Assembly (NCBI GenBank): GCA_035477215.1
Contig: DATIKU010000030.1
Coordinates: 22,299 to 86,298, forward strand
From: Spirochaetota bacterium
GTDB taxonomy: Bacteria > Spirochaetota > UBA4802 > UBA5368
DNA length: 64,000 nt
Direction: 5' to 3'
In this document: piece after piece, positions 6,679 through 31,990 of the stretch
Layout of the letters: each line of letters opens with the position of its first letter
Numbering within the stretch: the stretch's first letter is position 1
Made by a program: the position numbers and the translations under genes
Notes under the pieces: model-generated
The model's input: the letters and a program-made list of their open reading frames with translations, nothing else
Databases searched by the model: none
What the model was told of the DNA's origin: nothing

Positions 6679-6839
6679 GGCGGATATTCCATCGGCCCGC
6701 CCCATTGCGACAGGAGACACCGGATACCCGGCGGCGTTATCGGGATTTAATATTTGCTCAGGCGAGCGGTTTGCGTTATCATGATTCCAGTGATGACCAT
6801 CAAACAGCGGACCCATCAGTCCGCGGAGGAAGGGTTGTC

Positions 6840-14000: not shown

Positions 14001-16169
<2,169 letters not shown>

Positions 16170-16200
16170 TTTCCGATAATCAAAGCGGTAAAAAAACGAA

Positions 16201-16229
16201 AAGCGCTCCATTCATGGGGCGCTTTTTTT
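16201..16229. terminator. Bidirectional intrinsic terminator shared by convergent glnN and the HDAC-like gene
   Basis: Hairpin AGCGCTCC-attcat-GGGGCGCT followed by T8 on the plus strand and preceded by an A7 run (U-run on the minus strand). Confidence 0.65.
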
Positions 16230-16246
16230 TCGCGCAGCGAGTAGCA

Positions 16247-17557
16247 TCAAAACCTGAGGTATTCCCGGTCCCTCCTGTTGATAAACTGGATATGCGAATG
16301 CCTGCCCTTTTCACGCGACTCTTCGAGGATGCGATAGCCCTCGCTTTTACACCTGTCGCAGGCCCCCAGCGGGACCTCGACACCGAGGCAGAGCGGGTTG
16401 ACCGACGATATCGTCTCGATCTTTAAAACGCCGCCGCAGTCGTCGCAGACCATGATCGACTCGACCTGGTTTTCATGAATGCCGTCGGTGTCGTAGTAGA
16501 TCGACTTTTTGCGCACGAAATAATTGCCCGGCATTGTGCGCATCACCAGATCGCGCGCGCGTCGGTGCCGGTCGAGTATTTCTCGGGAGAGCTTTTTTAT
16601 GTACTGCGTTACCTCAGCCCCCTGGCGGATCGCCTCTTTGTCGAAGTCGGGTTCGCGCACGTAGGAATAATCCAACCCCGCCATGGCGAGTACTATTCCG
16701 AGGTTTACGTAGGGAAGCGCGCCCTGTATGGAATAGCCTCCCTCGAGCACCGCGATATCCGGCTTTAGCAGCTCGTTCAACCGGGCGTAACCCTGGGCGG
16801 AGAAGTGCATATTGGTGATCGGATCGGAATAATGGTTGTCCTGGCCCGCCGAGTTGATGACCAGATCGGGCTTAAATTCGTCGAGGATCGGCAGGATCAC
16901 CTTCTCCAGAACGTACAGAAAGCCCTCGTCGGAGGTTTCGGGCGGCAGGGGGATGTTTACGGTCTTCCCGATGGCGTTGGGGCCTCCCTGTTCTTCGATA
17001 AAGCCGCTGCCCGGATACAGCGTCCTTCCGTCCTGGTGCACCGAAATAAACAGCGTATCGGGGTCGTGCCAGTAGACGTCCTGGGTGCCGTCGCCGTGAT
17101 GGCAGTCGGTGTCGACGATGGCGATGCGCTTCCTCCCACAGTGTTCGCGGATGTGCTCGATCATAACGGCCTCGATGTTGATGTTGCAGAAGCCGCGGGA
17201 ACCGTGCACCACCTTCATGGCATGGTGTCCGGGCGGGCGCACGAGCGCGAATGCACGGTCCTCGCGCTTTTCCATCACCAGCTTCGCCGCCTTGATGGCG
17301 CCTCCGGCCGAGACGAGGTGCGACTCGGTCAGGATACTTTTTACGTCGGGAAAGCAGAAATGCGTGCGTTCCACATCTTCTATCGTCGCGATATCCGGCT
17401 TGTATTCCTTGATTCCGGGGATGTCAAACACGCCCTCCTCCACCAGCTGGTCCTGCGTATACAAAAGGCGCTCCTGACGCTCGGGATGCGTCGGACTTAT
17501 CGCCCAGTCGAAGGCCGGGAAGAAAATGAGACCCAGTTTGTTCTTCGCCTTCAGCAT
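16247..17557 (-). CDS. Histone deacetylase (HDAC)/acetoin-utilisation AcuC-family amidohydrolase with C-terminal Cys4 zinc-ribbon extension
   Basis: DTDCHHGDGTQDVYW and RPPGHHA HDAC active-site motifs. C-terminal CDDCGG...CDRCK. Confidence 0.8.
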   Translation of the reverse strand: MLKAKNKLGLIFFPAFDWAISPTHPERQERLLYTQDQLVEEGVFDIPGIKEYKPDIATIEDVERTHFCFPDVKSILTESHLVSAGGAIKAAKLVMEKREDRAFALVRPPGHHAMKVVHGSRGFCNINIEAVMIEHIREHCGRKRIAIVDTDCHHGDGTQDVYWHDPDTLFISVHQDGRTLYPGSGFIEEQGGPNAIGKTVNIPLPPETSDEGFLYVLEKVILPILDEFKPDLVINSAGQDNHYSDPITNMHFSAQGYARLNELLKPDIAVLEGGYSIQGALPYVNLGIVLAMAGLDYSYVREPDFDKEAIRQGAEVTQYIKKLSREILDRHRRARDLVMRTMPGNYFVRKKSIYYDTDGIHENQVESIMVCDDCGGVLKIETISSVNPLCLGVEVPLGACDRCKSEGYRILEESREKGRHSHIQFINRRDREYLRF

Positions 17558-19227
17558 GATTGGCGCACCCCCTTTCCGTATTCCTCCAGTATGCCCGGCT
17601 TTACCTGACAGCGCACCCTGATGTTTTTTCCGGTGGTGAAATGCCCCTTCACCATGTTGAAGGAGGCCGCGTCGACCACCTCGGCCTGTACGCGCTCTCC
17701 GGGGGCGGTTTTGCCGAGATGTTCGATGAGGTATCGCCGAGCGTCTTCCCCCGCCTGTTCAAGTGAATACGAACCCGGAATTTCGCGCGATACGCTTATC
17801 TCGGGGATGATGAGCATGCCCTTCTCGGTATCGGCGAGGAGCTCGATACTCATGGTCGTTCGCGCAAGCGCGGCGCCGATCGCGTTTGCAACCGAATAAT
17901 TGCGCGGCACCGTCACCCCGAGCGAAAAGACCGCGGCCAGGGCCTGACCGAAGGCCTCGGCCGGCCCCCCCACGGCATACATCCGTCCGGGCGTGATTTT
18001 TCTTCCCTCGAGCATTTCGTGTATGGTATACACCGGCCTTTGATTTATTTCATCGACAAGCGTATCGACCGCCGATTTGATGGCGGCAATGGCCCGCGAT
18101 ACGGCGGCTTCAGCAAGGGCGTCCGCCGGCATCCCCGACTTTTTCGCAAGCTCTGCAATCGCATTTTTCGACGATTCAACGTCCCCGTGTGTGACGCTCC
18201 CCCTGAAGTTGAAGGCGTCGATCAGGGTCGCAAAAACCCCGCCGTCGGCCACCGCCGGGCCCAGCCGCTCGGGACCCACATCGACGGCGCCGTTGTTCAC
18301 CCTGAGGAGTGAGTCGCCGCCTATCCCTATCGAGCGCGTTCTCAGCGCCCGCACCAGCGTGGGTCTTCCGTTAAGCGCGATCCCATCCGGTTCGATGATC
18401 GGGGCCCCCGACGCGAATACGGCGATGTCGGTGGTCGTACCGCCGATGTCCATGACCACCGAATCGGTGGAGATATCGCAGAGCGCGAGTATCCCCATCA
18501 CGCTTGCCGCCGGCCCCGAAAGAATGGTCTCAACCGGCAGTATGCGCGATACGGCCAGCGGCATGGTGCCGCCGTCAGCTTTAAGCACGTTTACGGAAGC
18601 GTTGACTCCGTATGCGGCCAGCGCTTTCTCCACGGCGTCGGCGAACCGGTTGTAGAGACGCCACACCGCTGAATTATAATAGGCCGTGGCTATGCGCCGT
18701 GGAAAGTTAAGGTGACCCGAAAGTGTGTGCCCCATGGTGATATAATCGGAATCGCCCGACAGCGAGTCCCTTATCGCGTTCTCGTGGGAGGGGTTGCGCG
18801 GTGAAAACTTCGAGACCGCGGCGAAAGACCTGATTCCGGATTTCCTGCACGCCGCGACCGCCTTTTCCAGCTGTCGCCGGTCGAGCTGAAGAATCTCGGT
18901 ACCCCGGTGGTCAAGCGCGCCATCGACACGATGATAGTGCTCCCCGATTTTAAAAAGATTCGGTTCGATTCCGGGCCCCGCACTTACGACCATACCGACC
19001 TTTTCGGTCGTGCCTTCCACGATTGCGTTCGTCGAGAGCGTTGTGCTGAGGTTGATACGGTGGATATCGGCGGCGCCGACCTCGCGAAGCATAGCCGCTA
19101 TTCCGTCGTTCACCGACTCGAAGAGGTTCTCATGGTTGGTTGCCACCTTGGCGGCCGCACGCACGCCACCGGCGTCGATAACGACCACGTCGGTATGGGT
19201 GCCTCCCACGTCAATACCAAGCAGCAT
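17551..19227 (-). CDS. Hydantoinase_A / oxoprolinase family (ASKHA ATPase) protein. ORF open to 19260; the likely start is MLLGIDVGG.
   Basis: LLGIDVGGTHTDVVVID, NLSTTLSTNAIVEG. 7-nt overlap with the downstream HDAC-like gene. Confidence 0.6.
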   Translation of the reverse strand: MLLGIDVGGTHTDVVVIDAGGVRAAAKVATNHENLFESVNDGIAAMLREVGAADIHRINLSTTLSTNAIVEGTTEKVGMVVSAGPGIEPNLFKIGEHYHRVDGALDHRGTEILQLDRRQLEKAVAACRKSGIRSFAAVSKFSPRNPSHENAIRDSLSGDSDYITMGHTLSGHLNFPRRIATAYYNSAVWRLYNRFADAVEKALAAYGVNASVNVLKADGGTMPLAVSRILPVETILSGPAASVMGILALCDISTDSVVMDIGGTTTDIAVFASGAPIIEPDGIALNGRPTLVRALRTRSIGIGGDSLLRVNNGAVDVGPERLGPAVADGGVFATLIDAFNFRGSVTHGDVESSKNAIAELAKKSGMPADALAEAAVSRAIAAIKSAVDTLVDEINQRPVYTIHEMLEGRKITPGRMYAVGGPAEAFGQALAAVFSLGVTVPRNYSVANAIGAALARTTMSIELLADTEKGMLIIPEISVSREIPGSYSLEQAGEDARRYLIEHLGKTAPGERVQAEVVDAASFNMVKGHFTTGKNIRVRCQVKPGILEEYGKGVRQSC

Positions 19228-19369
19228 GCAACACCTCACCGGTAGAAAGTGCCCGAGCATAGCTCAGGTACAGTCCTCTGTCAAGAATGATATGCCACCC
19301 CGAATGGGGCATTTTCATTGTTTACAAAATTCGAGAACTTTACCAGAATGAATCACAACAGGTTCAGTC

Positions 19370-21379
19370 ATGCGTGAGAACCACAGACCATTGATAAAAA
19401 CCATACCTCTGACACTTGCGACAGCGGCCGTTTTATTGGCCGCCACAGTGCATCTGCGCGCGAACGCCCCGGAGCCACCGCGCGCGGTCGGCGGCGTGAT
19501 GGATCTGCGCTCGTATGACCTGGAGCGCATGAAACCCGTCAGACTGGACGGTGAATGGGAGTTCTACTGGCGGCAGATACTGGAGCCCGCCTACTTCCGA
19601 ACCGGCAATCGCGGGGCCCCAGGTGAATTCTTCACCGTTCCCGGCGTCTGGAACAATCGTTCGGCCGGAGATACGATCATCGATGGAGACGGGTACGCCA
19701 CCTTTCGCCTCACTATCCTGACCGACGGCCGCGAGGGCATACGCACTTTGAAGATACCGGTTATGGCAACTTCATATCGGTTATACGCCAACGGACTCCT
19801 TCTTGCCGTCAACGGAATCGTTTCAACATCCCCCGAGTCCACAAGAGCGGAGTACAATCCGAAAACCGCTTCGTTCGAACTCACCGGAAACATGATCGAG
19901 ATGGTAATGCACATCTCCAACTTCAGCTCGGACAAGGGAGGCCCCTGGAACTCCATCCACCTGGGGACGGAAACCGAAATCATGATGCTCCGGGACCGCC
20001 GGCTTTTATACGAGTATGTTCTGCTGGGCGGGCTCATCGTGATGGGCCTCTATCACCTGGGTCTTTTTCTCCTGCGGCGTAACGAACGGTCCGCTCTCTA
20101 TTTCGGGGTCTTCAGCCTGATCATCGCGCTCAGGCTGACACTTACGGGGGAGTTCATGCTCGTACGGTTCTTCCCCGGAATCGACTGGGAACTGGAGATG
20201 AAGATCGAATTTCTCACCATCTATGTGGGGCTGCCGGTATTCGCCGGATTCATCCGTTCGCTCTTTCCGTCCGAAATGCCCGGGATCGCGCGTTACATCT
20301 ATTTCGCGATAGGTCTTTTATTCTCCATCCCCGTATTGATATTTCCATTGCGCGTTTACAGCCATTTCCTGACGCCGTTTCATATCGTGAGCCTGGCCGC
20401 GTTTGCCCACCTCCTCTTCACGGCATGGCGGGCCGTTCTCCGCAGGCGCGCTGACGCGATGCTCGTACTCGTCGGGCTGCTGATCCTGATGGGTACCGCG
20501 ATCAACGACATCCTCGACGCCAATCTGGTCATACGAACGGGCTACATGCTGCCCACGGGACTTTTCATTTTCGTATTGCTGCAATCCTTCATACTCTCCC
20601 GACGGTCCACGGGCGCGTTCGCTGACGCGTTGATCCTGGCAGATCTTCGCCAGGAGCTCGAGGTCGCCCGTCGCATCCAGAAATCGATCCTGCCCGTGTC
20701 GCCGGCCGTCATGGACGGTATGGACATGCATATTTTCACCCTTCCTCCCGAGGGCATAAGCGGCGATTATTACGACTGGCACATTATCGACAGTCGGCGT
20801 ATCGGCATACTGTCCGCCGACATAGTGGGACACGGCGTTTCCGCCGCCATGATCGCGTCCACGCTGAAGGTCCTCTTTTCGTTCGTCAGGGACAGGGCCG
20901 ACTCACCGGCCACGCTGCTGCAGGCCATGAACGACATGCTGGTGGGCAGGAACATAAGTCAGTTCATTACGGCTTCGTACTCGTACATTGATCTCGATGC
21001 CCGGAAAATCGTGTACGCGAACGCGGGCCATCCACCTTTTTTCATCCTGCCCCGCGACGCCGCCGAACCGATCGTGGCCGATGCCGAAGGCCGGGCAATG
21101 GGCTGGACGAACGACATCCGCTGTGCACAGCACACCCTTCCGCTTCGACCGGGAGACAGGCTGGTTATTTACACCGACGGAATAACGGAATGCCGGAGCG
21201 CGCGGGGGGAGCTTTTCGGCGAGAAGCGTTTCGCCTCGTGCCTCCGCGAGTGGAGGGATCTGCCCGGGGGAGAACTCGCGAGACTGCTCGGGGTACGGCT
21301 TACGGCCTGGCGCAAACCCGCCATTGACTTCGAGGACGATATTACACTGCTGATTATCGGTCTCGATGGAAACGAATAG
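19370..21379 (+). CDS. Membrane receptor: periplasmic 7TMR-DISMED2-like domain, 7TM region and C-terminal PP2C/SpoIIE-type serine phosphatase
   Basis: Signal peptide, a block of ~7 hydrophobic helices (residues ~210-400), then GISGDYYDW...ILSADIVGHGVSAAMIAS...VIYTDGITE. Confidence 0.75.
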   Translation: MRENHRPLIKTIPLTLATAAVLLAATVHLRANAPEPPRAVGGVMDLRSYDLERMKPVRLDGEWEFYWRQILEPAYFRTGNRGAPGEFFTVPGVWNNRSAGDTIIDGDGYATFRLTILTDGREGIRTLKIPVMATSYRLYANGLLLAVNGIVSTSPESTRAEYNPKTASFELTGNMIEMVMHISNFSSDKGGPWNSIHLGTETEIMMLRDRRLLYEYVLLGGLIVMGLYHLGLFLLRRNERSALYFGVFSLIIALRLTLTGEFMLVRFFPGIDWELEMKIEFLTIYVGLPVFAGFIRSLFPSEMPGIARYIYFAIGLLFSIPVLIFPLRVYSHFLTPFHIVSLAAFAHLLFTAWRAVLRRRADAMLVLVGLLILMGTAINDILDANLVIRTGYMLPTGLFIFVLLQSFILSRRSTGAFADALILADLRQELEVARRIQKSILPVSPAVMDGMDMHIFTLPPEGISGDYYDWHIIDSRRIGILSADIVGHGVSAAMIASTLKVLFSFVRDRADSPATLLQAMNDMLVGRNISQFITASYSYIDLDARKIVYANAGHPPFFILPRDAAEPIVADAEGRAMGWTNDIRCAQHTLPLRPGDRLVIYTDGITECRSARGELFGEKRFASCLREWRDLPGGELARLLGVRLTAWRKPAIDFEDDITLLIIGLDGNE

Positions 21380-21408
21380 AGGGCCCGAAGGCCCCCTATA
21401 TTCCAGGA

Positions 21409-23136
21409 TCAGTCTCCCGCGTATTGTCCCGCCGCGCGGAGTTTAGCCTTTTCTTCCTCTTCAAGCGTATTGAACGCGATCTTGCCCACAAGTGTCTTGG
21501 GAAGATCGTTGCGGAACTCGACCTCGCGCGGACAGCTCCACTTGAGCAGGTGCTCGGCGCAGTGGTTGATGAGTTCGTTCGCGAGCTCTGTTGAGGCCCT
21601 GGACTTGTCTTTCAGCACGATAAACGCTTTAACGCGCGAAATCTGCGCTTTGTCGGGGACACCGATGACGCATGCCATGTCCACCGCCGGGTGCTGGCGC
21701 AGAATATCCTCCACCTGGCCAGGATAGACGTTGACACCTGAAGATTTTATCATGCGCTTGATACGCTGTTTGAAGTACATGAAGCCGTCCTCGTCCATGT
21801 TCGCCATGTCGCCGGTGTGCAGCCACACCCGGCCGTCGGAATGCTTTTTCAAAACGCTCGCCGTTTCCTCGGGCTGGTCGAGATACCCCAGCATCACCGC
21901 CGGGCCGTACAGGCATATCTCGCCCTCCTCTCCCGGGGCGCATTCCTCGTCGGTACCCATCTTTACGATCTTCGCGTCCATGTCAGGGAACGGCACCCCG
22001 ATGCTTCCCTCGCGGTACTCGTTTATGGGCATGGCCCCGATCGCCGTAACGGCCTCGGTGAGGCCGTATCCCTCCAGGAGCTTCACGTTGCCGCCCTGCC
22101 GGCTGACTATCGCTTCGAATTCTTCTTTCACGACTCGGGGCAGCGTGTCCGCGCCGCTGAAACAGCCCTTGAGACATGAAAGGTCGGTCTTTTTGAATTT
22201 CTCGTTATTGGAAAGGGCCATGAAGAGCGTCGGCACGCCCACCACGAAGGATGGACGCTTGGATTTAATCAGTTTCGCGACCTCCTCCGGAGTGAAGGTG
22301 GGGACGAGGATGCTCTTGCCGCCGCCCATAAACGCCGCGTTCACGCAGACGCCCAGGCCGAAACCGTGGAAGATGGGCATAATCGCGAGTATCGAGCTGG
22401 TACGGTCCAGCCCGCCCCAATGCGCGACCATAAGGCCTTCGCTTATGAAGTTATAGTTGGAAAGCATGATCCCCTTGGGAACGCCGGTGGTCCCGCCGCT
22501 GTAAAGAACGACCGCCATCTCGTCCGGGCCCATTTCGGCCGGTTGTACCGACGGGTACGAGCCGTTCATCATTTCGTTCCACCATATCACGCGATCGTCC
22601 TTGGGCACCTTGGGAATCTTGCGCCCCTTGGTGAGGTTGAAGCCGATCTTCTTGACCAGGCCCAGGTAGTCGGGAATGCGCGCGAGGATGAGCTTCTTGC
22701 AGTCTGTCTTGTGCATGATCTGGTTGAAGTTGCCGTAGAACGCGTCGATGGTGAGCGCCATGACGCTCTTGCTTATATTGAGGTAAAATTCGATCTCCTT
22801 CGGCGGCGAGAGAGGATGAATCATGCTCGCCACGGCCCCGAGCTTGTTCACACCATAGAAGCAGATGATACCCTGCGGGCTGGTGGGCATCGAGATCGTG
22901 ACGCGGTCTCCCTTTTTAAGCCCCATTGCCGCGAGCGCGTCCGCGCACCTGTCGATCTCCTCGGCGAAACGCCGGTAGGTCGACGTGTATCCCAGAAAAT
23001 CGTAGGCTATCGTATCGGGGTATTTGTCCGCGGTGTCCATCACCGCCCGGTACATGCTTACCCTCGGATAATCGATCGATTCGGGAACATTGCCATAGAA
23101 CTTGAGCCACGGTTTCTTCTCGTACATGGTGAGCAC
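21409..23136 (-). CDS. AMP-dependent synthetase/ligase (acyl-CoA ligase, FadD-like)
   Basis: LYSGGTTGVPKG AMP-binding motif, LEGYGLTE, 575 aa. Confidence 0.85.
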   Translation of the reverse strand: MLTMYEKKPWLKFYGNVPESIDYPRVSMYRAVMDTADKYPDTIAYDFLGYTSTYRRFAEEIDRCADALAAMGLKKGDRVTISMPTSPQGIICFYGVNKLGAVASMIHPLSPPKEIEFYLNISKSVMALTIDAFYGNFNQIMHKTDCKKLILARIPDYLGLVKKIGFNLTKGRKIPKVPKDDRVIWWNEMMNGSYPSVQPAEMGPDEMAVVLYSGGTTGVPKGIMLSNYNFISEGLMVAHWGGLDRTSSILAIMPIFHGFGLGVCVNAAFMGGGKSILVPTFTPEEVAKLIKSKRPSFVVGVPTLFMALSNNEKFKKTDLSCLKGCFSGADTLPRVVKEEFEAIVSRQGGNVKLLEGYGLTEAVTAIGAMPINEYREGSIGVPFPDMDAKIVKMGTDEECAPGEEGEICLYGPAVMLGYLDQPEETASVLKKHSDGRVWLHTGDMANMDEDGFMYFKQRIKRMIKSSGVNVYPGQVEDILRQHPAVDMACVIGVPDKAQISRVKAFIVLKDKSRASTELANELINHCAEHLLKWSCPREVEFRNDLPKTLVGKIAFNTLEEEEKAKLRAAGQYAGD

Positions 23137-23188
23137 TCCTTTTATTGAATGGTTATGGCGCGTCCTGACGGTCGCGTCGATCGGTTGT

Positions 23189-24436
23189 TCATCCCTTTTT
23201 CTGTTTGATGATCTCCATGAACGCGTCGATGCGGGTTTCGATCTGGCTTTCGCTCCAGGCGCGTTCGTCGACCATGTCGGCCTCGATCATAAGACTGGGC
23301 AGGCCCGTATCGCGCTGCAGGGATTTCATGATGTCGTACTGGCCCAGCGAGTACGGCTTGCAGCTGCGGTTTGAATGCATAACGATCCCGTCCACGTCGT
23401 ACTTTTTGATCATTTTCTTGATGATCTTGAGCATCTCGTCCACGCCGATATTGAGATAGATACGCGTGTAGCCTTCGACCATGGAGCCGAGGAAATCGTT
23501 CTCGTCGAGGTATTCGAGCGAGCCGCACCACGCGGAGGTGTAGGTATCGGCGACCAGGCACGCGTCGTACGAGGCGAACTTATCGGAGAGCCACTTGGTC
23601 TTGAACCATACCGGCAGGTTGTCCCACAGCAGGCGGTAGCGTTCGTTCGGGACGGCGCCGATCTTTTGCGCCGCGCGCTCCTTCATCTCTTCGAGCAGCA
23701 TCGTATAGTAGTCCACCGCCGTCTGCGTCCCCCGGAGCGTCACGATGAGGGCAAGGTGGAAAAACGCGTCGAAGGCCGACATGGGCGCCGGTTTGTTCAT
23801 TGTAGTGTCAAGCACGTCCTGCCAGAGGCGCTGGCCCTGCAGGGAAAGCCTGCCGACCTCCTTCATTTTATCCATATCGAACTTTTTACCGCATACCACC
23901 TCGAGGAATTTTATATACTCATCGATCTGGCTGCGGACGTACTTCCTTGCTTCGCTCGAAAACTCGGTGTGGCAGAACGGCGTGTCGAAGATGAAAAGCG
24001 GCACCTTGTAGTAGCGGGCCTGCACCTCGTACCATTTGAGCACCGTGCCGCAGATGTTGTTGCAGCACACCAGGAAATCCGGGGCGGGGAGCCCCCCTAT
24101 GGGACCGCCGTTTACCGTGGAGGCCGCGATGTCCGAGCGGGCGTACGAACAGATGTCGCGGCAATATCCCATGTCCTCGGCCTTCTCGCAGAGGTCCACT
24201 CCCATCTTGGAAGCGCCGATCATGGCACCGTGGTTTTCCGGGTAGACCGGTATTGCGTCCATAACGATGAGTGGCTCTACGGGACCGCCGCTGGTGATCC
24301 AGGCGACCTTCTTTCCGTTCTGCGCGGCGGTTTTTGCGTCTATATAGTACGCGGTCATTATCTCCTTCATTTTCTTGATGGATTTGACCTTCATCTTTTC
24401 CTTCTCGGGGTCCTTCTTTAAATGTTCTTCAGACAT
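23189..24436 (-). CDS. 2-hydroxyacyl-CoA dehydratase / BcrBC-BadDE family component (HgdA/HgdB-like). ORF open to 24535; likely start MSEEHLKKD at 24436 with a GGAGA RBS.
   Basis: Cys-rich HgdAB-family regions (YCRDICSYARSD, FLVCCNNICGT). Adjacent to a paralogous component. Confidence 0.7.
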   Translation of the reverse strand: MSEEHLKKDPEKEKMKVKSIKKMKEIMTAYYIDAKTAAQNGKKVAWITSGGPVEPLIVMDAIPVYPENHGAMIGASKMGVDLCEKAEDMGYCRDICSYARSDIAASTVNGGPIGGLPAPDFLVCCNNICGTVLKWYEVQARYYKVPLFIFDTPFCHTEFSSEARKYVRSQIDEYIKFLEVVCGKKFDMDKMKEVGRLSLQGQRLWQDVLDTTMNKPAPMSAFDAFFHLALIVTLRGTQTAVDYYTMLLEEMKERAAQKIGAVPNERYRLLWDNLPVWFKTKWLSDKFASYDACLVADTYTSAWCGSLEYLDENDFLGSMVEGYTRIYLNIGVDEMLKIIKKMIKKYDVDGIVMHSNRSCKPYSLGQYDIMKSLQRDTGLPSLMIEADMVDERAWSESQIETRIDAFMEIIKQKKG

Positions 24437-24506
24437 GATTTTTCTCCTCGATTGATATCGAACGACATCCGGCCAGCCGCCGCCCGGAAGCGGCTTATGA
24501 TTTTGC

Positions 24507-25628
24507 CTAACGCAGCATCTCGATAAAGGCCTCAAAGCGCGTCGAGAGCTGTCCCTCAGAAGGAAGGTCCTGCTCGATCTCCATCAGCATGCTCGGGACG
24601 CCCTCCCGGTCCAGCATCTCCTTCATGTACGGATAGTCGAAGGAGTGCGGATCGCAGAATTTCAACAGCAAAAAGATGACGCCCGACGCGCGGTGCTCCT
24701 TCGCGATGCCCACTATACCGTCGCCCCTGGCCGTGATGGACGAATGCTTCGCCGGGCACACGACGCGTTCGGTAAACCGGTCCGCGAGCGCTTCGATGGG
24801 ATCGCCGCCCTCGGACACCAGGCCCTCAAAATAGCGCGACCCTGTGCAAAGGTCGTCCCAGACCACCGCGCCGCCCGATTTTTCGATTATCGAATAGATG
24901 TCGGCATGGTCGCAGAGCCCGCCGCTTAAAACGATACGCTTCCCTGAATCGGCCCCCGCGGCCTTCGTTTTTTCCAGTTGGTCAGCAACGGCCGTAAGCT
25001 TTTCCGCGGCGTCCGCCCGGTCCATGATCATTGCACTCTTTACGAGCGCGTAGACGTCCGCTCCCGCTATCAGCCCGGGATTCGCGCTTCGCAGACGGTA
25101 TATTTTCCCGAGCGCGCGCTTTATCGTGTTGAAGGTTTTGATCGACTTTGAGAGCTGCGCGTCGGTAATACTGAGGCCAAGGTCCATTTCGAGCTCGCGT
25201 TTGAACTTGCGCAATACATCCCCCATGTATTGCCTCGCGCTCGACGTATCAAGCTTCACCGGCAGCACCACGTCGGAATGAAAACTGAACTTCAGATTGA
25301 GACGCCAGATGTCCGAGAGTCGCTGGATTGAATCGCAGGTATGGGGGAACACCGCACCGTCGAGGAACTCGAGTCTTCCCGCAAGGGCCTCCTCGAGTAC
25401 GCCGCGCACCAGCGAACAACTGTATGCCTGCAAATGGGCGTCCGCGTGGGCGATGGCCGAGCGGGTCCCGAAAAGCCTGAGTGGATGAATCCCCGCGGCG
25501 TGAATGATCTCCTCGGGCGTATATGAGCAGAAGTATCCGAGGATCTTTTTCCCCGAGTCGTTTTTAAGACGCCGTGCGTATCCGTCGCTGTCGTTGATTA
25601 CGTCGTGAAATTGCCGGATCGTATTCAT
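24507..25628 (-). CDS. 2-hydroxyacyl-CoA dehydratase family component (HgdB/HgdA-like), first gene of the operon
   Basis: ILGYFCSYTPEEIIHAAGIHPLRLFG N-terminal HgdAB-family signature. 373 aa. Confidence 0.7.
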   Translation of the reverse strand: MNTIRQFHDVINDSDGYARRLKNDSGKKILGYFCSYTPEEIIHAAGIHPLRLFGTRSAIAHADAHLQAYSCSLVRGVLEEALAGRLEFLDGAVFPHTCDSIQRLSDIWRLNLKFSFHSDVVLPVKLDTSSARQYMGDVLRKFKRELEMDLGLSITDAQLSKSIKTFNTIKRALGKIYRLRSANPGLIAGADVYALVKSAMIMDRADAAEKLTAVADQLEKTKAAGADSGKRIVLSGGLCDHADIYSIIEKSGGAVVWDDLCTGSRYFEGLVSEGGDPIEALADRFTERVVCPAKHSSITARGDGIVGIAKEHRASGVIFLLLKFCDPHSFDYPYMKEMLDREGVPSMLMEIEQDLPSEGQLSTRFEAFIEMLR

Positions 25629-25726
25629 GCATTCTCACCCTTTCGTTTGGAATTACGAGGACGCCGACCGCACCGGCTCCGGGCGTGCCATCCCGGCAAC
25701 AGTATGGCGACGAAATTTCGTACTTG

Positions 25727-25753
25727 ACAGTGTACGATAATATCGTACACTGT
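25727..25753. promoter_or_regulatory. 27-bp perfect palindrome ACAGTGTACGATA-A-TATCGTACACTGT overlapping a TTGACA(25724-25729)-N16-TACACT sigma70-like promoter; candidate IclR operator
   Basis: Arms are exact reverse complements with a 1-nt spacer. Located in the divergent intergenic region between the dehydratase operon and the IclR gene. Confidence 0.6.
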
Positions 25754-25840
25754 TCTATTGTTTTCGCATCTCTGCTAATATGTCAATAAGATAAGCGCAT
25801 TAAAATAAAAATATTTCCTGCGGGCGGAGGAAGGGCGTCT

Positions 25841-26611
25841 ATGACGTTAAAGCAAAGAAGGCTCATTCAATCCATCAAGAGGGCCTCGGACATACTCGGC
25901 ATTTTTATCCAGGAGAAGCGTACAATGGGTATTACGGATTTCGCCCACCGCCTCGCGCTGCCTAAAACCACCATCTCGAGCATCGTCCGGACCCTGGAGG
26001 CGCTGAAGTTCCTTGAAAAGGACCACATCACCTCCAAATACCGCCTTGGCCCCGCGCTTTTCCAACTGGGGATGAAATACGCCACCAACATGGACCTGGT
26101 CATCATCGCGCGGGCTTGGATGGAACGGTTGTGCTTTCAGTTCATGGAGCCGGTGAACGTCGGCATGCTGGTCGGAGACAAGGTGATCGTGGTGCTCAGG
26201 GTCGAACCTGAAAACCGATTTATGGTCTTTCCGCAGGCCGGCTCGGTAATACCCGTCCATACCACCTGCATCGGGAAGCTTCTCCACGCCCATCTGTCTC
26301 CAGACGAGCGAGGCGCCCTCCTCAAGAATTACTCCTTCGAGAAGCTTACGGCGAATACAATCGATGATCGCGAGCGCTTTATTGCGGAGCTTGACCGGGT
26401 GAAACACGAAGGTGTCGCGTTCGACAACGAGGAGTCGATAGTGGGACTGGCGGGCATCGGCGGGCCGATTTTCAATTACACAGGACAGGCCGTGGCCGCT
26501 TTTGTCATCACCGGCAAAGCGGAAAATATCCGGAAAAATCGCGAAAAGATGATAACCGCCGTACGCTATACGACCGGCCAGGTTTCGGCACAGTTGGGAT
26601 ATTCGCCTTAA
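25841..26611 (+). CDS. IclR family transcriptional regulator
   Basis: N-terminal HTH (SIKRASDILGIF...ITDFAHRLALPKTTISSIVRTLEA) and C-terminal IclR effector-domain-like region. 256 aa. Confidence 0.8.
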   Translation: MTLKQRRLIQSIKRASDILGIFIQEKRTMGITDFAHRLALPKTTISSIVRTLEALKFLEKDHITSKYRLGPALFQLGMKYATNMDLVIIARAWMERLCFQFMEPVNVGMLVGDKVIVVLRVEPENRFMVFPQAGSVIPVHTTCIGKLLHAHLSPDERGALLKNYSFEKLTANTIDDRERFIAELDRVKHEGVAFDNEESIVGLAGIGGPIFNYTGQAVAAFVITGKAENIRKNREKMITAVRYTTGQVSAQLGYSP

Positions 26612-26722
26612 AACAGCAGAAAAACAGCTTTGCCTTAACTCAGAACAAGGGGCTGCACCCCCTTGTTCGGCCGATTGTTGCGCCTACGTACTAACCAGTC
26701 TGCGCATATCAATAAAAAATGC

Positions 26723-26751
26723 TTGCCGAATGTCCAGAAATTGGGTATAGT
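26723..26751 (+). promoter_or_regulatory. Sigma70-like promoter TTGCCG-N17-TATAGT directly abutting a CIRCE element
   Basis: Spacing and -10 are visible in the sequence. Its arrangement relative to CIRCE mirrors the hrcA promoter. Confidence 0.4.
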
Positions 26752-26754
26752 TTA

Positions 26755-26781
26755 TTAGCACTCAGCACCAGTGAGTGCTAA
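26755..26781. promoter_or_regulatory. Second, orphan CIRCE operator TTAGCACTC-agcaccagt-GAGTGCTAA
   Basis: Perfect 9-N9-9 match to CIRCE, with extended arms ttattagcactc/gagtgctaata shared with the hrcA copy. No chaperone gene lies downstream. Confidence 0.85.
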
Positions 26782-26820
26782 TATCAGGCGGGCTGATGCC
26801 GGCTGATATACTTCAAGCAC

Positions 26821-26848
26821 ATCCCCATGGCGACATGGGGATTTTTTT
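26821..26848 (+). terminator. Intrinsic terminator, plus-strand orientation
   Basis: 9-bp stem ATCCCCATG/CATGGGGAT with GCGA tetraloop followed by T6-7. It overlaps the stop of the convergent lipoprotein gene. Confidence 0.65.
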
Positions 26849-27389
26849 ACAGCCGCCATTGGTCGCGGAGGACCTCCATTTCAAGTTCGTAATAATACTC
26901 CGCTACGGCCTCTTCGATCGAGGCGTGTAATTTCGGCAGTCGCGGCTCTATCAAAGGGTTTTTCGCAAGCAGTTGCTTTCTGATATGGCCGGTAAAGGTA
27001 TCAAGAGGGGGGATCAGATAGTTTTTGACATAGGTATACTGCTTCCAGTCTCTTTCAATCTCGTATGCGGACATTCTGTGACGCATCATCGCCCCGAGGC
27101 GGTATAGCTTTTTATAGAACTCCAGGATATCGTCCGGACTAAAATCCTGGAGCGCCGCCGCCAGCGCCTTCTCCCTTGCCGGCATGTTCGTTTCGCTGAA
27201 CGAATGCGAGTGGATGTAATCGATCTCTATCTCATCATCGAAGCCGAATCCGTAATCGAGCGCCTCGCTGGTTTTCTCGAGCATCTTTTTTTGCGCCGGC
27301 GAAAAAATCGAGTCGTCGCGGACGGGCATTAACGCACACCCTCCCGCGAATATCAGCACCAACGGCAATAACACCCATTTCATGTTCAT
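26847..27389 (-). CDS. Hypothetical lipoprotein
   Basis: Signal peptide plus lipobox (LIFAGGC), 180 aa, no other motif. Confidence 0.5.
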   Translation of the reverse strand: MNMKWVLLPLVLIFAGGCALMPVRDDSIFSPAQKKMLEKTSEALDYGFGFDDEIEIDYIHSHSFSETNMPAREKALAAALQDFSPDDILEFYKKLYRLGAMMRHRMSAYEIERDWKQYTYVKNYLIPPLDTFTGHIRKQLLAKNPLIEPRLPKLHASIEEAVAEYYYELEMEVLRDQWRL

Positions 27390-27406
27390 CTCTCGATCAA
27401 TATCCT

Positions 27407-28444
27407 TTATTCGAAATCTTCCAGACGCAATGGGAAGTCTTCCGGGATGTCACGCCGGCTCGTGCGGCCCAGCATTCGCCTCAGATCCGCGACCGGCATT
27501 CCCACGCCGGGTCGCTTGACCGCAACCGCGTCCCGGTCCAGCGCTTCGCCGGCGCGAAGGGGCCTTCTGCTAAAGAGGCTTCTGCGTGCCGAATTTGCAA
27601 CCTCTTTTTCAGAAAAGTCATAGTCGATGCGCCCATCGCCCATCATTTCCATCGCCGTCTCGACATCGCCCCTCATGCGGCGAAACTCCGCCGGGGAAAG
27701 CGACACGGCCGCATCCGGGCAGTCATACCCCTCTTCCGGCATGAAGTGCTTCTCGAAAACGCGCGCACCGAGCATCGCGGCGAGCGCGCAGCCCCTCCCG
27801 TCGGTTGAATGATCCGAAAATCCCACCGGAATGCCGAAGCGTTCGCGAAGCGACGATATCCGCGAAAGGTTGGCCTTGTCGCAAGGGAGCGGATATAGAG
27901 CGACGCAGTGAAGCAGGATGATGCCGCTCGTTCCGCCCCGCCGGAGTGTGTCGATGGCACGCCCGATCTCATCGCCGGTGGATATTCCGGTGGACATGAT
28001 GACGGGTTTGCCGGTGGCGGATACGCGCTCGAGGAGCGGAGTGTTCGTTACCTCCGAAGAGGCGAGCTTGTACAGGGGGATGCCGACCCGCTCGAGCATT
28101 TCGACAGATTGAATATCGAAGGCGGAGGAAAAAAAGACAAGGTTCGCCGCCTCCGCCGCTCTTTTAAGCTCATGATAGTCATCCTCTCCCAGAACGAAGC
28201 GTCGGAAAAAATCGATTTGCGCGGTATCCGCCACGAGGTTTTTTTCTCCCCGCAGCATCGAGTTCGTGTAACGTGAGTACATCTCCTCCGGAACAAAGGT
28301 CTGGAGTTTGACGGCGTCGGCCCCGGCCCCCGCGGCCGCTTCGATCATGGAGAGCGCTTCGTCGCGGTTTCCGTTGTGATTAATACCGATTTCCGCGATA
28401 AAAAACGTCGCGTCTCCTTTATGCACTTTCTCCATTCGGTTCAT
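27407..28444 (-). CDS. NeuB family sialic/nonulosonic acid synthase-like protein (N-acetylneuraminate / pseudaminic acid synthase family) with C-terminal SAF domain
   Basis: FIAEIGINHNGN hallmark. TIM-barrel NeuB core. 345 aa. Confidence 0.75.
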   Translation of the reverse strand: MNRMEKVHKGDATFFIAEIGINHNGNRDEALSMIEAAAGAGADAVKLQTFVPEEMYSRYTNSMLRGEKNLVADTAQIDFFRRFVLGEDDYHELKRAAEAANLVFFSSAFDIQSVEMLERVGIPLYKLASSEVTNTPLLERVSATGKPVIMSTGISTGDEIGRAIDTLRRGGTSGIILLHCVALYPLPCDKANLSRISSLRERFGIPVGFSDHSTDGRGCALAAMLGARVFEKHFMPEEGYDCPDAAVSLSPAEFRRMRGDVETAMEMMGDGRIDYDFSEKEVANSARRSLFSRRPLRAGEALDRDAVAVKRPGVGMPVADLRRMLGRTSRRDIPEDFPLRLEDFE

Positions 28445-28635
28445 CCCGCCTCCCCGCCTTTCCCCGGCAATGCCTTATCGTTCATGCGTGTACTGGACAG
28501 CCCCAGGTGATTCAAAGACCCTACTGTATTTTTCGGCATCGGGCCGGTATTTTTAATTGACACAGACCAAAAACAAGTTAATCTTCCATGGCGCTCTGGT
28601 CCAGTCGAAATATCATAAATTCTCGGGGTTTGCGC

Positions 28636-30120
28636 ATGGGTAAGAAGTTTATCATCGCTCTTGATTTGGGCACCACCGGAAACCGCGTATTCTGCTTCGA
28701 TGAGGCTGGCTATCCCCTTTCGAGCGCCTACCGCGAGTTCACCCAGTACTTTCCACGCCCCGGATGGGTCGAGCACGATCCCGAGGAAATCTGGTCATCC
28801 ATCGCGGGTCTGATCACCGAGGCCATCGCCGGGGGAAATCTCGACCCGGCCGACGCTCTGACCATCGGCATAACCAACCAGCGCGAGACCGCCGTCCTCT
28901 GGAACAAGGACACCGGAAAGCCCGTATACAACGCCATCGTATGGCAGTGCCGGAGGACGACCGAAATCTGCAACGATTTAAAGAGTGGGGGCCTCGAGGA
29001 AAGCTTCAAGAAAAAAACGGGCCTCTTGGTGGATGCCTATTTTTCCGGCACAAAGATAAAGTGGATGCTCGACAATGTCTCCGGCGTCAAAGAGCTCGCC
29101 AAATCGGGCAAACTCTTCTTCGGCACCATCGATACCTGGATCCTATGGAAACTCACCGGAGGAAAATCGCACAAGACCGATTATACCAACGCCTCCCGAA
29201 CGCTCGTCTTCAATATAGTCGACAAACGCTGGGACCGCGAGCTGCTCGAGATACTCGGCATCCCCGTGAACATCCTTCCCGAAGTGCGCGATTCGTCCTC
29301 GTTCTTCGGTGAAACGCTCGGCGCCCCCGGTATTCCCGACGGTGTCCCGATCGGCGGAATCGCCGGTGATCAGCAGGCAGCCATGGTGGGTCAAAACTGC
29401 GTTTTCGAGGGGACCATCAAGAACACCTACGGCACCGGTTGTTTTATGCTGCTGAACACGGGCGACTCCTTCATTCTTTCCGACAAGGGCCTCCTCACCA
29501 CGATCGCCTGCAACCCGCTCGGCAAGCCGGCTTATGCATTCGAGGGCTCCGTCTTCGTCGCCGGGGCCGTGGTGCAGTGGCTGCGCGATTACATGAAATT
29601 TTTCGAGCAAAGCCCGGATTCCGACAGGCTCGCCATGTCCTTCGAGAAGGACGACGAGGTGGTAATGATCCCGGCCTTCGTTGGGCTGGGAGCGCCGTAC
29701 TGGAAGATGGACGCGCGCGGTGCCATCTTCGGTCTCACCCGCGACACCACGCGCGAGCAGATCATACGCGCCGCCCTGCGGTCCATCGCGTTCCAGTCCA
29801 TGGACGTCATCGAGGTGATGCAGCAGGACTCGGGTAAGACCATTCACGAACTGCGCGCGGACGGCGGGGCGACGAGAGGGTCGTACCTGATGCAGTTTCA
29901 GGCCGACATACTGGGCATCCCGGTCCTTCTGCCGGAGGTGATCGAGTCGACCGCGCTCGGCGCGGCGTACCTCGCGGGGCTTTCGGCCCGACTGTATAAT
30001 TCGATCGACGAGGTCGCCAAGCAGAACCGGATCGTTACGCGATACATTCCTCAATATTCCGAAAAGGAACGATCAGCCCAGAGAAAGCTCTGGAAAGACG
30101 CCGTTAATCGATTATTGTAA
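28636..30120 (+). CDS. glpK: Glycerol kinase. ORF open from 28588; likely start MGKKFIIALDLGTTG.
   Basis: FIIALDLGTTGNRVF, WVEHDPEEIW, FGTIDTWILWKLTGG: classic GlpK motifs. Confidence 0.9.
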   Translation: MGKKFIIALDLGTTGNRVFCFDEAGYPLSSAYREFTQYFPRPGWVEHDPEEIWSSIAGLITEAIAGGNLDPADALTIGITNQRETAVLWNKDTGKPVYNAIVWQCRRTTEICNDLKSGGLEESFKKKTGLLVDAYFSGTKIKWMLDNVSGVKELAKSGKLFFGTIDTWILWKLTGGKSHKTDYTNASRTLVFNIVDKRWDRELLEILGIPVNILPEVRDSSSFFGETLGAPGIPDGVPIGGIAGDQQAAMVGQNCVFEGTIKNTYGTGCFMLLNTGDSFILSDKGLLTTIACNPLGKPAYAFEGSVFVAGAVVQWLRDYMKFFEQSPDSDRLAMSFEKDDEVVMIPAFVGLGAPYWKMDARGAIFGLTRDTTREQIIRAALRSIAFQSMDVIEVMQQDSGKTIHELRADGGATRGSYLMQFQADILGIPVLLPEVIESTALGAAYLAGLSARLYNSIDEVAKQNRIVTRYIPQYSEKERSAQRKLWKDAVNRLL

Positions 30121-30143
30121 GAACACAACCTGGAGGAAATACT

Positions 30144-30341
30144 ATGGCAAAGCCGCTGCTGGGAGAAATGCTGCTCGAAAACGGGGAGATAACCCGCGAG
30201 CAGCTCGACAAGGCGCTCGAGGTGCAGAAAAAAGAAGGCGGACTCATGGGCATCATTCTCGTCAACATCGGCTTTATCTCCGAGAAGACGCTGGTCAAAT
30301 TTCTCGCGGTGCAGGCCGAGCGTGTGGTGAAATCGGAGTAG
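30144..30341 (+). CDS. Small standalone protein resembling the T2SSE_N / MshEN domain (c-di-GMP-binding fold found at the N-terminus of GspE/MshE ATPases)
   Basis: LLGEMLLENGEITREQLDKALEVQKKEGGLMGIILVNIGFISEKTLVKFLAVQ matches the tandem L..L...GlIt.eqL..AL..Q-type MshEN motif. Strong RBS GGAGGA 7 nt upstream. Confidence 0.45.
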   Translation: MAKPLLGEMLLENGEITREQLDKALEVQKKEGGLMGIILVNIGFISEKTLVKFLAVQAERVVKSE

Positions 30342-30343
30342 TA

Positions 30344-31990
30344 CTATATCCGCTTGTGATTTATTCTTTTGTAAATCAGGTCGTTGGTAACTTTTAGTAT
30401 TTTGTCTATCTTGAACGGCTTTTTAAGAATATAAGCCAGCCCCTGGTCGAGCAGCGTGTTCACGCCGGGAATTTCGTCGACCCCGGTGATGAAGACGATG
30501 TCGGTCGAGGGGCTCACCTTTTTTATCATCTCGAAAACCTTGTCACCTTTTATACCGGGCATGAGGTAATCCAGAAACACAATATCGATGTCTTCGAACC
30601 CGCACATCTCGACGGCCTCCTCTCCGCTTGATACGGCAATTACCTGGTAGCCCGCCGCGTCGAACGCCCGCGAGAGGAATTCGCGTATGGGATCCTCGTC
30701 GTCGACTATGAGAATCCGCGTATCCCCGAAGAACACCACTTCGCTTTGCTCGTATCGCGCGCCCTTATCGTCGCCCAGTTCGGTGCGCGGAAACACAAGG
30801 TATATCTCCTTGCCGTTATCCTTATCGCTCGCGATGGTGAGCAGACCTCCGTGGCTCTGCATGATGCCATACGCCACTGCGAGCCACAAGCCGGTGGCCT
30901 CCTTCCCGCCGCGGATGTCGCGCCCGTCCGTAGGTGTTAATCCGCCCATAAATGGATGTATCGCCATGTCGACCTGATCGCGGGTCATGCCGCTTCCATT
31001 GTCCCGAATGGTCAGAACCACCTTCTCGTCCAGGTATTCGGTCGAGATCTCAATGAGACCGGGCTCGTCCCGGTCCAGGGTGTGAATGGAGTTTTGCAGT
31101 ACGTTGAGTATTGCTTCCTTCACCTGTTCGCGGTCGACGAGGACCCGGGGGATATGTCCGTTTCGTACGGTTATCTCGATCCCCTCCTTTTCCATGACTG
31201 ACCTCTGCATCGAAACGACCTCGCCCACGATCTCGCCAAGCTGGTGGTGCTGCAACTTCGCGTTTTTGCCTTTTACAAAGACATTGAGGCTCTCGATGAG
31301 CCGGGCGCCCCGCTCGGTCTGGTTGTCGATAACCGAGACGGCGTTTTGAATCGATTTCGATTCCGGGCTCTGCATGTTGATGAGCTCGGCATATCCCTGA
31401 ATCACCGCGAATATATTGTTGAACTCGTGTGCGACGCTCGAGGAGAGCACTCCGAGGCTCGTAATTTTTTCGGAATACATCTCTTCGGGATTCACCTTTT
31501 CCATCCCCTGCAGCTCCGCGATCTGCTCCCTGAAGAGCGCCGATGAACCGATGATTCTGCCCGACAGCTGATAAAAATTGACGTTCTGTCTCTGCCGTGC
31601 GAGCTCACCGATATCGAACACTACTCCGATCATGCCCATTGTTTTATCACCGCCGACCAGCGGCACGAGAACCGCCGTTACTGCGAGGCCTTCGCGTGCT
31701 TCGGCCTCGGACGCGGGGAGATATATGACGCTCTTTTTCTTGATGGCCCTGCGCACCATGAGCGAGAAGTTGGGGAATGCGCCGATATGCCGGTCGAAAT
31801 TACCGCCCGCCTCCCCCACCAGCACCAGTTTTTCCTCGGACTCTATGGATATGTACCCAGCCGTTGAAAGCGGCGACATCTCCTTCTGGATGGCATCGAC
31901 GCAAGTTTTCAGATAGTCGTCGACGTCCTTAGCCTTCGAGGCCCCGCCAAGGAGGGCCATTGCAAGCTCGAATTGCGGTTTTGTAAGCAT
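30344..31990 (-). CDS. Hybrid sensor histidine kinase (GAF-like sensor, HisKA, HATPase_c, C-terminal REC)
   Basis: SVAHEFNN H-box, G-boxes (DNGSGM, GLWLA), C-terminal receiver ILIVDDEDPIREFL...FLDYLMPG. Confidence 0.8.
   Translation of the reverse strand: MLTKPQFELAMALLGGASKAKDVDDYLKTCVDAIQKEMSPLSTAGYISIESEEKLVLVGEAGGNFDRHIGAFPNFSLMVRRAIKKKSVIYLPASEAEAREGLAVTAVLVPLVGGDKTMGMIGVVFDIGELARQRQNVNFYQLSGRIIGSSALFREQIAELQGMEKVNPEEMYSEKITSLGVLSSSVAHEFNNIFAVIQGYAELINMQSPESKSIQNAVSVIDNQTERGARLIESLNVFVKGKNAKLQHHQLGEIVGEVVSMQRSVMEKEGIEITVRNGHIPRVLVDREQVKEAILNVLQNSIHTLDRDEPGLIEISTEYLDEKVVLTIRDNGSGMTRDQVDMAIHPFMGGLTPTDGRDIRGGKEATGLWLAVAYGIMQSHGGLLTIASDKDNGKEIYLVFPRTELGDDKGARYEQSEVVFFGDTRILIVDDEDPIREFLSRAFDAAGYQVIAVSSGEEAVEMCGFEDIDIVFLDYLMPGIKGDKVFEMIKKVSPSTDIVFITGVDEIPGVNTLLDQGLAYILKKPFKIDKILKVTNDLIYKRINHKRI

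Follow-up and report, generated by a model that had tools for sequence, protein, structure and literature searches.

A probable IclR-regulated operon of a Spirochaetota bacterium for an acyl-CoA radical enzyme, with its activase predicted to be encoded elsewhere

Organization of the locus

The 64,000-nucleotide stretch of Spirochaetota DNA analysed here, hereafter the window, carries three genes on the same strand, separated by intergenic gaps of 70 and 52 nt, which encode two related iron-sulfur proteins, termed β and α, and an AMP-forming acyl-CoA ligase; a gene for an IclR-family regulator is divergently encoded upstream of them, and a 27-bp perfect palindrome lies in between (Table 1). Every feature described in an earlier note, which had been made from the sequence alone, was found where that note had placed it. 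We consider it likely, with a probability of about 0.7, that the region is an IclR-regulated operon through which an organic acid is converted into its CoA ester and then acted upon by an iron-sulfur radical enzyme, whose activator would be encoded elsewhere in this lineage.

As that note had proposed, both β and α belong to the HgdAB/HadBC/BcrBC superfamily (HGD-D, IPR010327), since the HGD-D profile was matched over its full or nearly full length. The ligase, with both of its expected domains and in the same direction as β and α, bears out the operon that had been proposed. The α protein is 100% identical to a deposited protein of a Spirochaetota metagenome-assembled genome (MAG). No Rfam match at E <= 1, to a riboswitch or any other known RNA, was found in the 5' leader and operon (21000-27000).

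Table 1. Coordinates and supporting matches of the features discussed, given for the window unless a related locus is named.
Feature	Position	Strand	Evidence
β gene, HGD-D, 373 aa	24507-25628	-	Pfam HGD-D, E 1.2e-87, profile positions 1-342 of 342
α gene, HGD-D, 415 aa	23189-24436	-	Pfam HGD-D, E 2.5e-80, profile positions 5-342 of 342
AMP-forming acyl-CoA ligase, FadD-like fatty-acid type (window type), 575 aa	21409-23136	-	AMP-binding and AMP-binding_C
IclR-family regulator, divergent from the operon	25841-26611	+	HTH_IclR 8e-10 (N-terminal), IclR_C 8e-38 (C-terminal)
27-bp perfect palindrome, probable IclR operator	25727-25753	.	inverted repeat of 13+1+13 nt, 100% complementary
Sigma-70-like promoter facing the operon (TTGACA, 18 nt, AACAAT)	25757-25786	-	consensus scan, 10/12; consensus match only
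Sigma-70-like promoter facing iclR (TTGACA, 16 nt, TACACT)	25724-25751	+	consensus scan, 10/12; inside the operator
Unlinked short-chain dehydrogenase/reductase (SDR), probable ortholog of the operon SDR of relatives, possible accessory enzyme	3738-4505	-	59% identity to the SDR of locus L021
Ligase beside β-α in locus L001, FadD1/steroid-22-oyl-CoA-synthetase-like	11255-13102		
Ligase beside β-α in locus L045, FadD11-like	3663-5474		

A HadB-like subunit with a predicted double-cubane partner

The closest structure to α in the PDB is HadB, of the (R)-2-hydroxyisocaproyl-CoA dehydratase HadBC/HadI from Clostridioides difficile (PDB 3o3m; 1.2e-78, 34.8% identity, 268 bits), MbdO (PDB 9g87; 3e-45, 158 bits) and BzdO (PDB 8s02; 8e-42, 147 bits) being only distant matches. 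HadB and α share three Cys ligands, the Glu of a YPEN motif and a CCNNIC motif. The cysteines of α, namely C96, C129 and C359, align with C95, C128 and C380 of BzdO and with those of HadB, are invariant in 36 orthologs, and are predicted to bind a [4Fe-4S] cluster with one open iron site. At the positions of BzdO Trp46 and His131, α has Gly and Val and HadB has Phe and Val; MbdO also lacks this His, so that the residue is not universal. All NCBIfam scores of α lie far below the equivalog cutoffs (HadB 315 against 750, BzdO 153 against 449, BcrB 187 against 487).

The β protein is, in contrast, equidistant from BzdN (2e-55) and HadC (5.5e-54). In the BzdNO structure an [8Fe-9S] cluster is held by Cys36, Cys73, Cys100, Cys263, Cys293 and Cys327 of BzdN (PMC11971306), which correspond to C34, C71, C98, C261, C291 and C325 of the window β. 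Also present are the equivalents of Arg53, Arg267 and Arg290, located around the distal sub-cluster, and of His330. Every β ortholog covering the respective position (28-31) has the six Cys and the three Arg, and at the His330 position 29 of 31 have His and the other two Gln. HadC, which binds a [4Fe-5S] cluster, lacks five of these ten positions, namely Cys36, Cys263, Arg53, Arg290 and His330, with Pro and Ala at the two Cys positions. Here too the NCBIfam scores fall short of the cutoffs (double_cubane 200.8 bits against 350, HadC 227 against 700, BzdN 193 against 454, BcrC 178 against 421). On the basis of these ligands, β is predicted to hold a double-cubane [8Fe-9S] cluster of the type found in BzdN and in the double-cubane cluster protein (DCCP).

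The enzyme is thus predicted to combine a dehydratase-like, HadB-like catalytic subunit with an [8Fe-9S] subunit of the benzoyl-CoA reductase (BCR)/DCCP type. The earlier description of the two proteins as an HgdA/HgdB-like dehydratase pair holds only with a qualification, given the six-Cys signature of β, which is absent from HadC. With a six-Cys β and a HadB-like α, the enzyme fits neither the canonical dehydratases nor the canonical benzoyl-CoA reductases, and this combination is undescribed for any characterized member of the family.

A conserved orthologous group

Homologs of α at E < 1e-20 numbered 5499, and the best 120 of these 5499, at least 77% identical to it, come from MAGs of Spirochaetota, Syntrophaceae/Syntrophales and Desulfobacterales. 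Orthologs from Syntrophaceae, Desulfobacterales and Leptospirales are about 65-81% identical to the window α. A scan of species-representative genomes yielded 34 loci, to which contig look-ups added more, and these related loci, referred to by L numbers where they need to be told apart, were compared by clustering of open reading frames (ORFs) and by family-specific hidden Markov models (HMMs). In all of them β is followed by α, and ligase orthologs stand before β or after α in about 25. Judged by these comparisons, the β-α pair is a tight, widespread and uncharacterized orthologous group, and no paper describing this clade was found. The clade is strongly conserved and very widespread in anaerobic digesters and sediments, in Spirochaetota, Syntrophales and Desulfobacterales.

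An activase relocated in the lineage

The absence of an HgdC-type activator from the window, as claimed in the earlier note, was confirmed. Of about 46 long ORFs that together cover the 64 kb, none gave a Pfam BcrAD_BadFG match above cutoff. An activase HMM, derived from 18 operon-linked activators and applied without filters to all six-frame stop-to-stop segments of at least 30 aa in the window, gave a best E of 0.49. Since both searches were blank, the absence is real and extends to remnants, so that an activase pseudogene in the window can be ruled out. Around the operons of 13 related loci with the same unlinked state (±10 kb), no weak signal of an activase or of another protein of the ASKHA (acetate and sugar kinase/Hsc70/actin) superfamily was found at E <= 0.01.

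This absence is not, however, the special trait that it had been taken for. The earlier note had named a co-localized activator in close relatives as evidence that would speak against its reading, and such activators were found. In 18 genome loci a gene of 254-293 aa is located directly downstream of α, sometimes after genes for an SDR and/or a transporter of the bile acid:sodium symporter (BASS) type, and about 22 orthologous loci overall have a linked activase after α. The products score 217-234 bits with Pfam BcrAD_BadFG and 287 bits with TIGR00241 ('acyl-CoA dehydratase activase', cutoff 125), do not reach the cutoffs for BCR ATPase equivalogs, and show the motifs GIDIGS, NDKCAAGTGRF and SxCTVFAESE; there is one such gene per complete operon. 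By these marks the linked gene is a canonical activase of the HgdC/HadI type. In the operons with an activase directly after α, the α protein is 65-78% identical to that of the window, and one of the loci, L042, has the complete arrangement IclR<->ligase-β-α-activase. Since a canonical activase is linked in these sister loci, the enzyme family would depend on an activator in the ordinary way.

In a neighbour-joining tree of α, rooted with HadB, the linked state is found in basal and sister lineages. One clade, made up of the window, L004-L011, L014 and the Syntrophaceae-like L001, is unlinked, as are, outside that clade, L012 and L034/L037. Read from this tree, the linked activase is ancestral and the unlinked state is derived in the Spirochaetota clade of the window. 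A metagenome scan with the activase alignment found stand-alone activases, two of which, L054 and L056, are surrounded over 15-20 kb by unrelated genes, none of them an HGD-D gene; that of L054 is a protein of 'Spirochaetes bacterium RBG_13_51_14', and its list of homologs includes several Spirochaetota entries. The close homologs of the Leptospirales-type activase that were looked up are all linked to HGD-D genes (7/7).

The case that bears most closely on the window is that of Spirochaetes bacterium ADurb.BinA120 (assembly GCA_002069125.1), its closest public relative. The operon of this MAG (L008, on MVZN01000001.1) is fully syntenic with window positions 13991-32964, with α, β and ligase 92%, 84% and 89% identical, respectively, and about 80% nucleotide identity. 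On another contig, MVZN01000012.1, the same MAG encodes an activase, P0300, which scores 417.5 bits on the family-specific HMM (401-467 for linked orthologs), is 70-77% identical to linked activases and keeps both cluster-Cys motifs. Within 7 kb of it there is no α, β, ligase, IclR or other HGD-D gene. Since this unlinked ortholog is encoded in the same MAG as L008, we conclude from sequence comparison that the activase was relocated, not lost, in the lineage of the window, and by analogy it is probably present in the window's own genome as well.

The genes left behind are functional in the unlinked clade, as for α, β, ligase and IclR dN/dS lies at 0.05-0.12 when the window is compared with L010 and with L008, the two comparisons free of saturation (dS 0.3-1.4); they are under strong purifying selection. 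Activators of this kind are catalytic, each activation serving for 1000 turnovers or more (PMC8473912); substoichiometric amounts suffice, so that an unlinked gene is no surprise and linkage is dispensable. The puzzle of the missing activator thus becomes one of gene arrangement: acting catalytically, archerases, as these ATPases are called, can be encoded far from their client enzymes, so that the absence of one from the neighbourhood says little.

Other components of the ancestral operon may have dispersed too. An SDR gene is located between α and the activase in at least 10 loci, including Desulfobacterales and Leptospirales operons, and the unlinked SDR of the window scores 409 bits on the operon-SDR HMM (true members 405-510), which is consistent with a break-up of the ancestral operon in this lineage. 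This SDR gene is about 19 kb from the operon, is followed by that of an unrelated 273-aa protein, and has no operator motif nearby. The 273-aa gene (2663-3484) was itself rejected as a divergent activator, as its product, in which charged residues abound, falls into no Pfam family and gives no signal with the HMM.

An unlikely surrogate activator is the 569-aa ASKHA protein of the hydantoinase_A family encoded at 17551-19260 (-), given that it is not matched by the activase HMM, that its invariant Cys number only two and that archerase cluster motifs are lacking. Its gene is not beside the operon in L011, L001, L012 and L034, which are likewise without a linked activase. It overlaps by 7 nt that of an HDAC-like amidohydrolase (436 aa; both within 16247-19260, -), and this translational coupling points to an independent function. 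Across the window clade and nowhere else the pair comes after the ligase or α, and it is probably unrelated to the operon; its adjacency is little informative, because the GS-III, NeuB and GlpK neighbours are equally syntenic in this narrow clade.

The IclR regulator and its probable operator

The palindrome between the divergent genes reads ACAGTGTACGATA-A-TATCGTACACTGT, with 13-nt arms, and contains at 25732-25748 the core GTACGATAATATCGTAC. A 17-bp inverted repeat, GTWCGAYAWTRTCGWAC, is common to the iclR-operon intergenic regions of the IclR-bearing loci, in three phylum-level groups, namely the Spirochaetota, Syntrophaceae and Leptospirales loci. The core takes the form GTACGATAATATCGTAC in the Syntrophaceae-like L001 as in the window, GTACGGTAATGCCGTAC in Leptospirales and GTTCGACATTATCGTAC in L042, and is extended to 23-27 bp in the window clade. 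Across phyla the core GTACGAYAWTRTCGTAC is kept, and it overlaps both divergent promoter-like sites. It directly follows an operon-facing TTGACA...TAnAAT-like promoter, the order -35, -10 and palindrome being kept in relatives; in the window, the operator begins 4 nt downstream of the operon-facing -10 box (AACAAT ending at 25757, with its TTGACA at 25786), and the TTGACA of the iclR-facing promoter (25724-25729, +) overlaps it, in agreement with the overlap noted earlier. The TGTCAA adjoining the palindrome is kept in close relatives and in L013.

IclR orthologs, 58-89% identical, are divergently adjacent to β-α in 16 IclR-bearing related loci, whereas a TetR regulator takes this place in the Desulfobacterales loci. 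From this phylogenetic footprint and the co-inheritance of the motif with the regulator, the 27-bp palindrome is very probably the IclR operator, as had been proposed. The palindrome covers the start of operon transcription and falls within the promoter of iclR, an arrangement that suggests repression by IclR of both the operon and its own gene (autoregulation). The best NCBIfam matches of IclR are BhcR, PcaR/PcaU and KdgR, all below cutoff. With IclR repressors of divergent catabolic operons (PcaR/PcaU, KdgR, AllR) it shares the two-domain architecture and a palindrome over divergent promoters, but no named regulator is its equivalog.

The core motif occurs once in the 64-kb window. At up to 3 mismatches no second copy was found in the window, including the region before the unlinked SDR, nor before the relocated activase (L136). 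By the operator motif, then, the operon, the relocated activase and the unlinked SDR are not one IclR regulon.

Reaction, substrate and alternative explanations

In the mechanism that we propose, IclR would bind the palindrome over both divergent promoters and repress transcription until an organic-acid effector appears. The FadD-like ligase would then make the CoA thioester of a carboxylic acid, probably an aliphatic one. A homodimeric HgdC/HadI-type archerase, encoded elsewhere in the chromosome by a gene that would have stood directly after α in the ancestor before moving in this lineage, would inject an electron, and this low-potential electron would pass from the cluster of β to the three-Cys [4Fe-4S] cluster of α. 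The β-α heterodimer would transform the acyl-CoA, and a 2-enoyl-CoA product would enter β-oxidation.

For the reaction itself we lean towards a ketyl-radical dehydration of a 2-hydroxyacyl-CoA to a 2-enoyl-CoA. The evidence that favours it is the affinity of α to HadB, the single activase gene of complete operons, the fatty-acid-type ligases, the SDR, the absence of ferredoxin and ring-pathway genes, and what is found in the operons of relatives, namely a MaoC-type enoyl-CoA hydratase with a nearby thiolase (L045/L050) and a BASS/PanS-like transporter (L013 and L015). The family of this transporter carries 2-oxo and 2-hydroxy acids. MaoC, SDR and thiolase fit a route from enoyl-CoA through 3-hydroxyacyl-CoA to 3-oxoacyl-CoA, and the neighbours together suggest an aliphatic, possibly 2-hydroxy, acid that feeds β-oxidation. 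The substrate could not be named, as the earlier note had anticipated: the ligase, SDR and IclR matches in NCBIfam and the PDB all fall below equivalog cutoffs and are of a generic, fatty-acid-type or FabG-like kind. The best matches of the ligase are long-chain fatty-acid ligase models and, in the PDB, FadD-1 (3g7s). Three non-orthologous fatty-acid-type AMP-forming ligases stand beside the same β-α pair in different lineages (Table 1).

Several neighbours in relatives are ester-cleaving or acyl-CoA enzymes. The relocated activase of ADurb.BinA120 starts 18 nt after a gene for a lipoprotein-like PF00756 esterase (L136 6114-7774), another stand-alone activase follows a 601-aa acyl-CoA dehydrogenase (L142 4751-7332), and in Syntrophales an α/β-hydrolase gene precedes that of the ligase (L045 2705-5474). 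These neighbours may hint at an acid released from an ester.

A number of observations weigh against a relocated-activase operon of the dehydratase type. To our knowledge, in the characterized 2-hydroxyacyl-CoA dehydratase pathways the CoA ester is formed by CoA-transferases and not by AMP-forming ligases. In its order of genes, β, α, ATPase, the system resembles bzdNOPQ and not hadIBC or hgdCAB. Neither the usual D-2-hydroxyacid-type dehydrogenase nor a set of Etf and acyl-CoA dehydrogenase genes is linked. Neither the relocated activase nor the unlinked SDR has the conserved operator upstream, and the relocation is documented in a congener-level relative, the window's own genome being represented by 64 kb. 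Lastly, the six-Cys signature is typical of BzdN and DCCP, not of the characterized dehydratases, which have one [4Fe-4S]-type cluster per subunit (PMC8473912, PMC11971306). By comparison with HadC, the only dehydratase β subunit used for this motif, the window β would not have the canonical single three-Cys [4Fe-4S]/[4Fe-5S] cluster, and its double-cubane signature leaves room for a multi-electron reduction.

The pair could accordingly be read as an ATP-dependent two-electron acyl-CoA reductase resembling class I benzoyl-CoA reductase, in which the double cubane of β would hold two electrons supplied by the ATPase and α would reduce an unsaturated, aromatic or otherwise recalcitrant acyl-CoA formed by the ligase. 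This we think doubtful. The basis for it is that β keeps all six [8Fe-9S] cysteines of BzdN with Arg53, Arg267, Arg290 and His330, and that the bzd system is similar both in activation by an AMP-forming ligase and in the gene order β, α, ATPase; the BzdN cluster has been proposed to accumulate at least two electrons (PMC11971306), and JGI labels the orthologs 'bcr-type benzoyl-CoA reductase subunit B'. However, α is nearer to HadB than to BzdO or MbdO and lacks the His131 and Trp46 of BzdO, all BCR equivalog models score far below cutoff, and the ligases are of the fatty-acid and not the benzoate type. Complete operons have one ATPase gene where Bzd and Bcr have two different ATPase subunits, and in no locus examined are there genes for a ferredoxin, a dienoyl-CoA hydratase or ring cleavage (Dch/Had/Oah-type). 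Less probable again is that a HadB-like α with a BzdN-type electron store, served by one trans-encoded archerase, would carry out a new class of reaction, either an ATP-driven multi-electron reduction or a reductive dehydroxylation of an aliphatic acyl-CoA.

Two further explanations take the absent activator at face value, and we regard both as very improbable. The enzyme might work without an HgdC-type activase in this lineage, charged directly by low-potential ferredoxin via the double cubane, for which the pyruvate:ferredoxin oxidoreductase at 33394-36936 could be the source, or by the hydantoinase-A-like ASKHA protein, which has the same superfold, a 19-bit BcrAD_BadFG match and a place after the ligase or α in the window clade; the lack of an activase in the 64 kb and in the surroundings of 13 related loci speaks for this. 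Yet the closest public relative encodes an orthologous activase on another contig, and the objections to the hydantoinase-like protein set out above, namely its absence from beside four operons, its two invariant Cys and its lack of an activase-HMM score, apply here. Most improbable of all is that the operon is a decaying, non-functional remnant whose activator was lost, as the missing ancestral activase could suggest: the reading frames are intact, the cluster ligands invariant, the operator and promoters conserved, and dN/dS is low in the presence of substantial synonymous divergence. A functional operon with a relocated activase, whose enzyme would work like other archerase-dependent HGD-D enzymes and most plausibly as a dehydratase, is the reading that we retain.

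Comparison with characterized systems

The Had system is a heterodimer with a homodimeric ASKHA activase encoded by a single gene, HadI, as in the complete operons of the window's relatives. It differs from the window in that the activase is unlinked in the lineage of the latter, in the NCBIfam scores far below the equivalog cutoffs, and in β, which has the full double-cubane set. In addition, it activates its substrate by a CoA-transferase and has another gene order, whereas the window operon encodes an AMP-forming ligase.

With BzdNO and MbdNO the window system has in common the six [8Fe-9S] ligands and their basic environment, β being as close to BzdN as to HadC. The likeness to bzd extends to the succession of N-like, O-like and ATPase genes and to an AMP-forming ligase that provides the CoA ester. 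However, BzdO and MbdO are only distant from α, and the Bzd and Bcr systems have two ATPase genes, a ferredoxin and dearomatization genes, where loci of the window type have one ATPase gene and none of the others.

DCCP of Carboxydothermus hydrogenoformans (PDB 6eno; YjiM/YjiL in E. coli) has the six coordinating Cys in common with the window β, and its partner ATPase is homodimeric and HgdC-like (PMC7317905). It is, however, a homodimer with a double cubane in each subunit and without a channel for a CoA ester, whereas the window encodes a heterodimer of a double-cubane subunit and a three-Cys catalytic subunit together with a CoA ligase.

The double-cubane cluster has so far been seen only in DCCP and BzdN, and here it is predicted beside a dehydratase-like subunit. 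An evolutionary path from DCCP through BCR to HAD has been proposed (PMC11971306), and characterizing this clade would both test that path and identify an organic-acid catabolic route in syntrophic and fermenting anaerobes.

Other features of the window

Between the ligase and hydantoinase-like genes, on the opposite strand, there is a 7TMR-DISM/SpoIIE-phosphatase gene (19370-21379, +), which is found in the window, L005, L007, L008, L014 and L033 but not in L004 or in L010, whose α is 95% identical; it is an insertion/deletion polymorphism among close relatives. An ORF at 109-792 (+) matches Pfam NAD-GH (PF10712) and is antisense to the 5' part of dnaK (N-terminus on the - strand, about 559-582), being most likely a shadow ORF and not a gene. 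At 6705-9206 (+) a glycyl-radical enzyme (PFL-like with Gly_radical) is encoded, with no recognizable activating enzyme adjacent, its neighbours being an NADase_transloc-like protein and an SDR; it is thus another radical enzyme without an adjacent activase. Finally, the stretch 54159-61198 holds another IclR gene (60440-61198, +) and, divergent from it, a further operon, an uncharacterized organic-acid module that comprises a cupin, an ADP-forming acyl-CoA synthetase (ATP-grasp/CoA-ligase), a BKACE β-keto-acid cleavage enzyme, an RpiB-like isomerase and a thiamine pyrophosphate enzyme.

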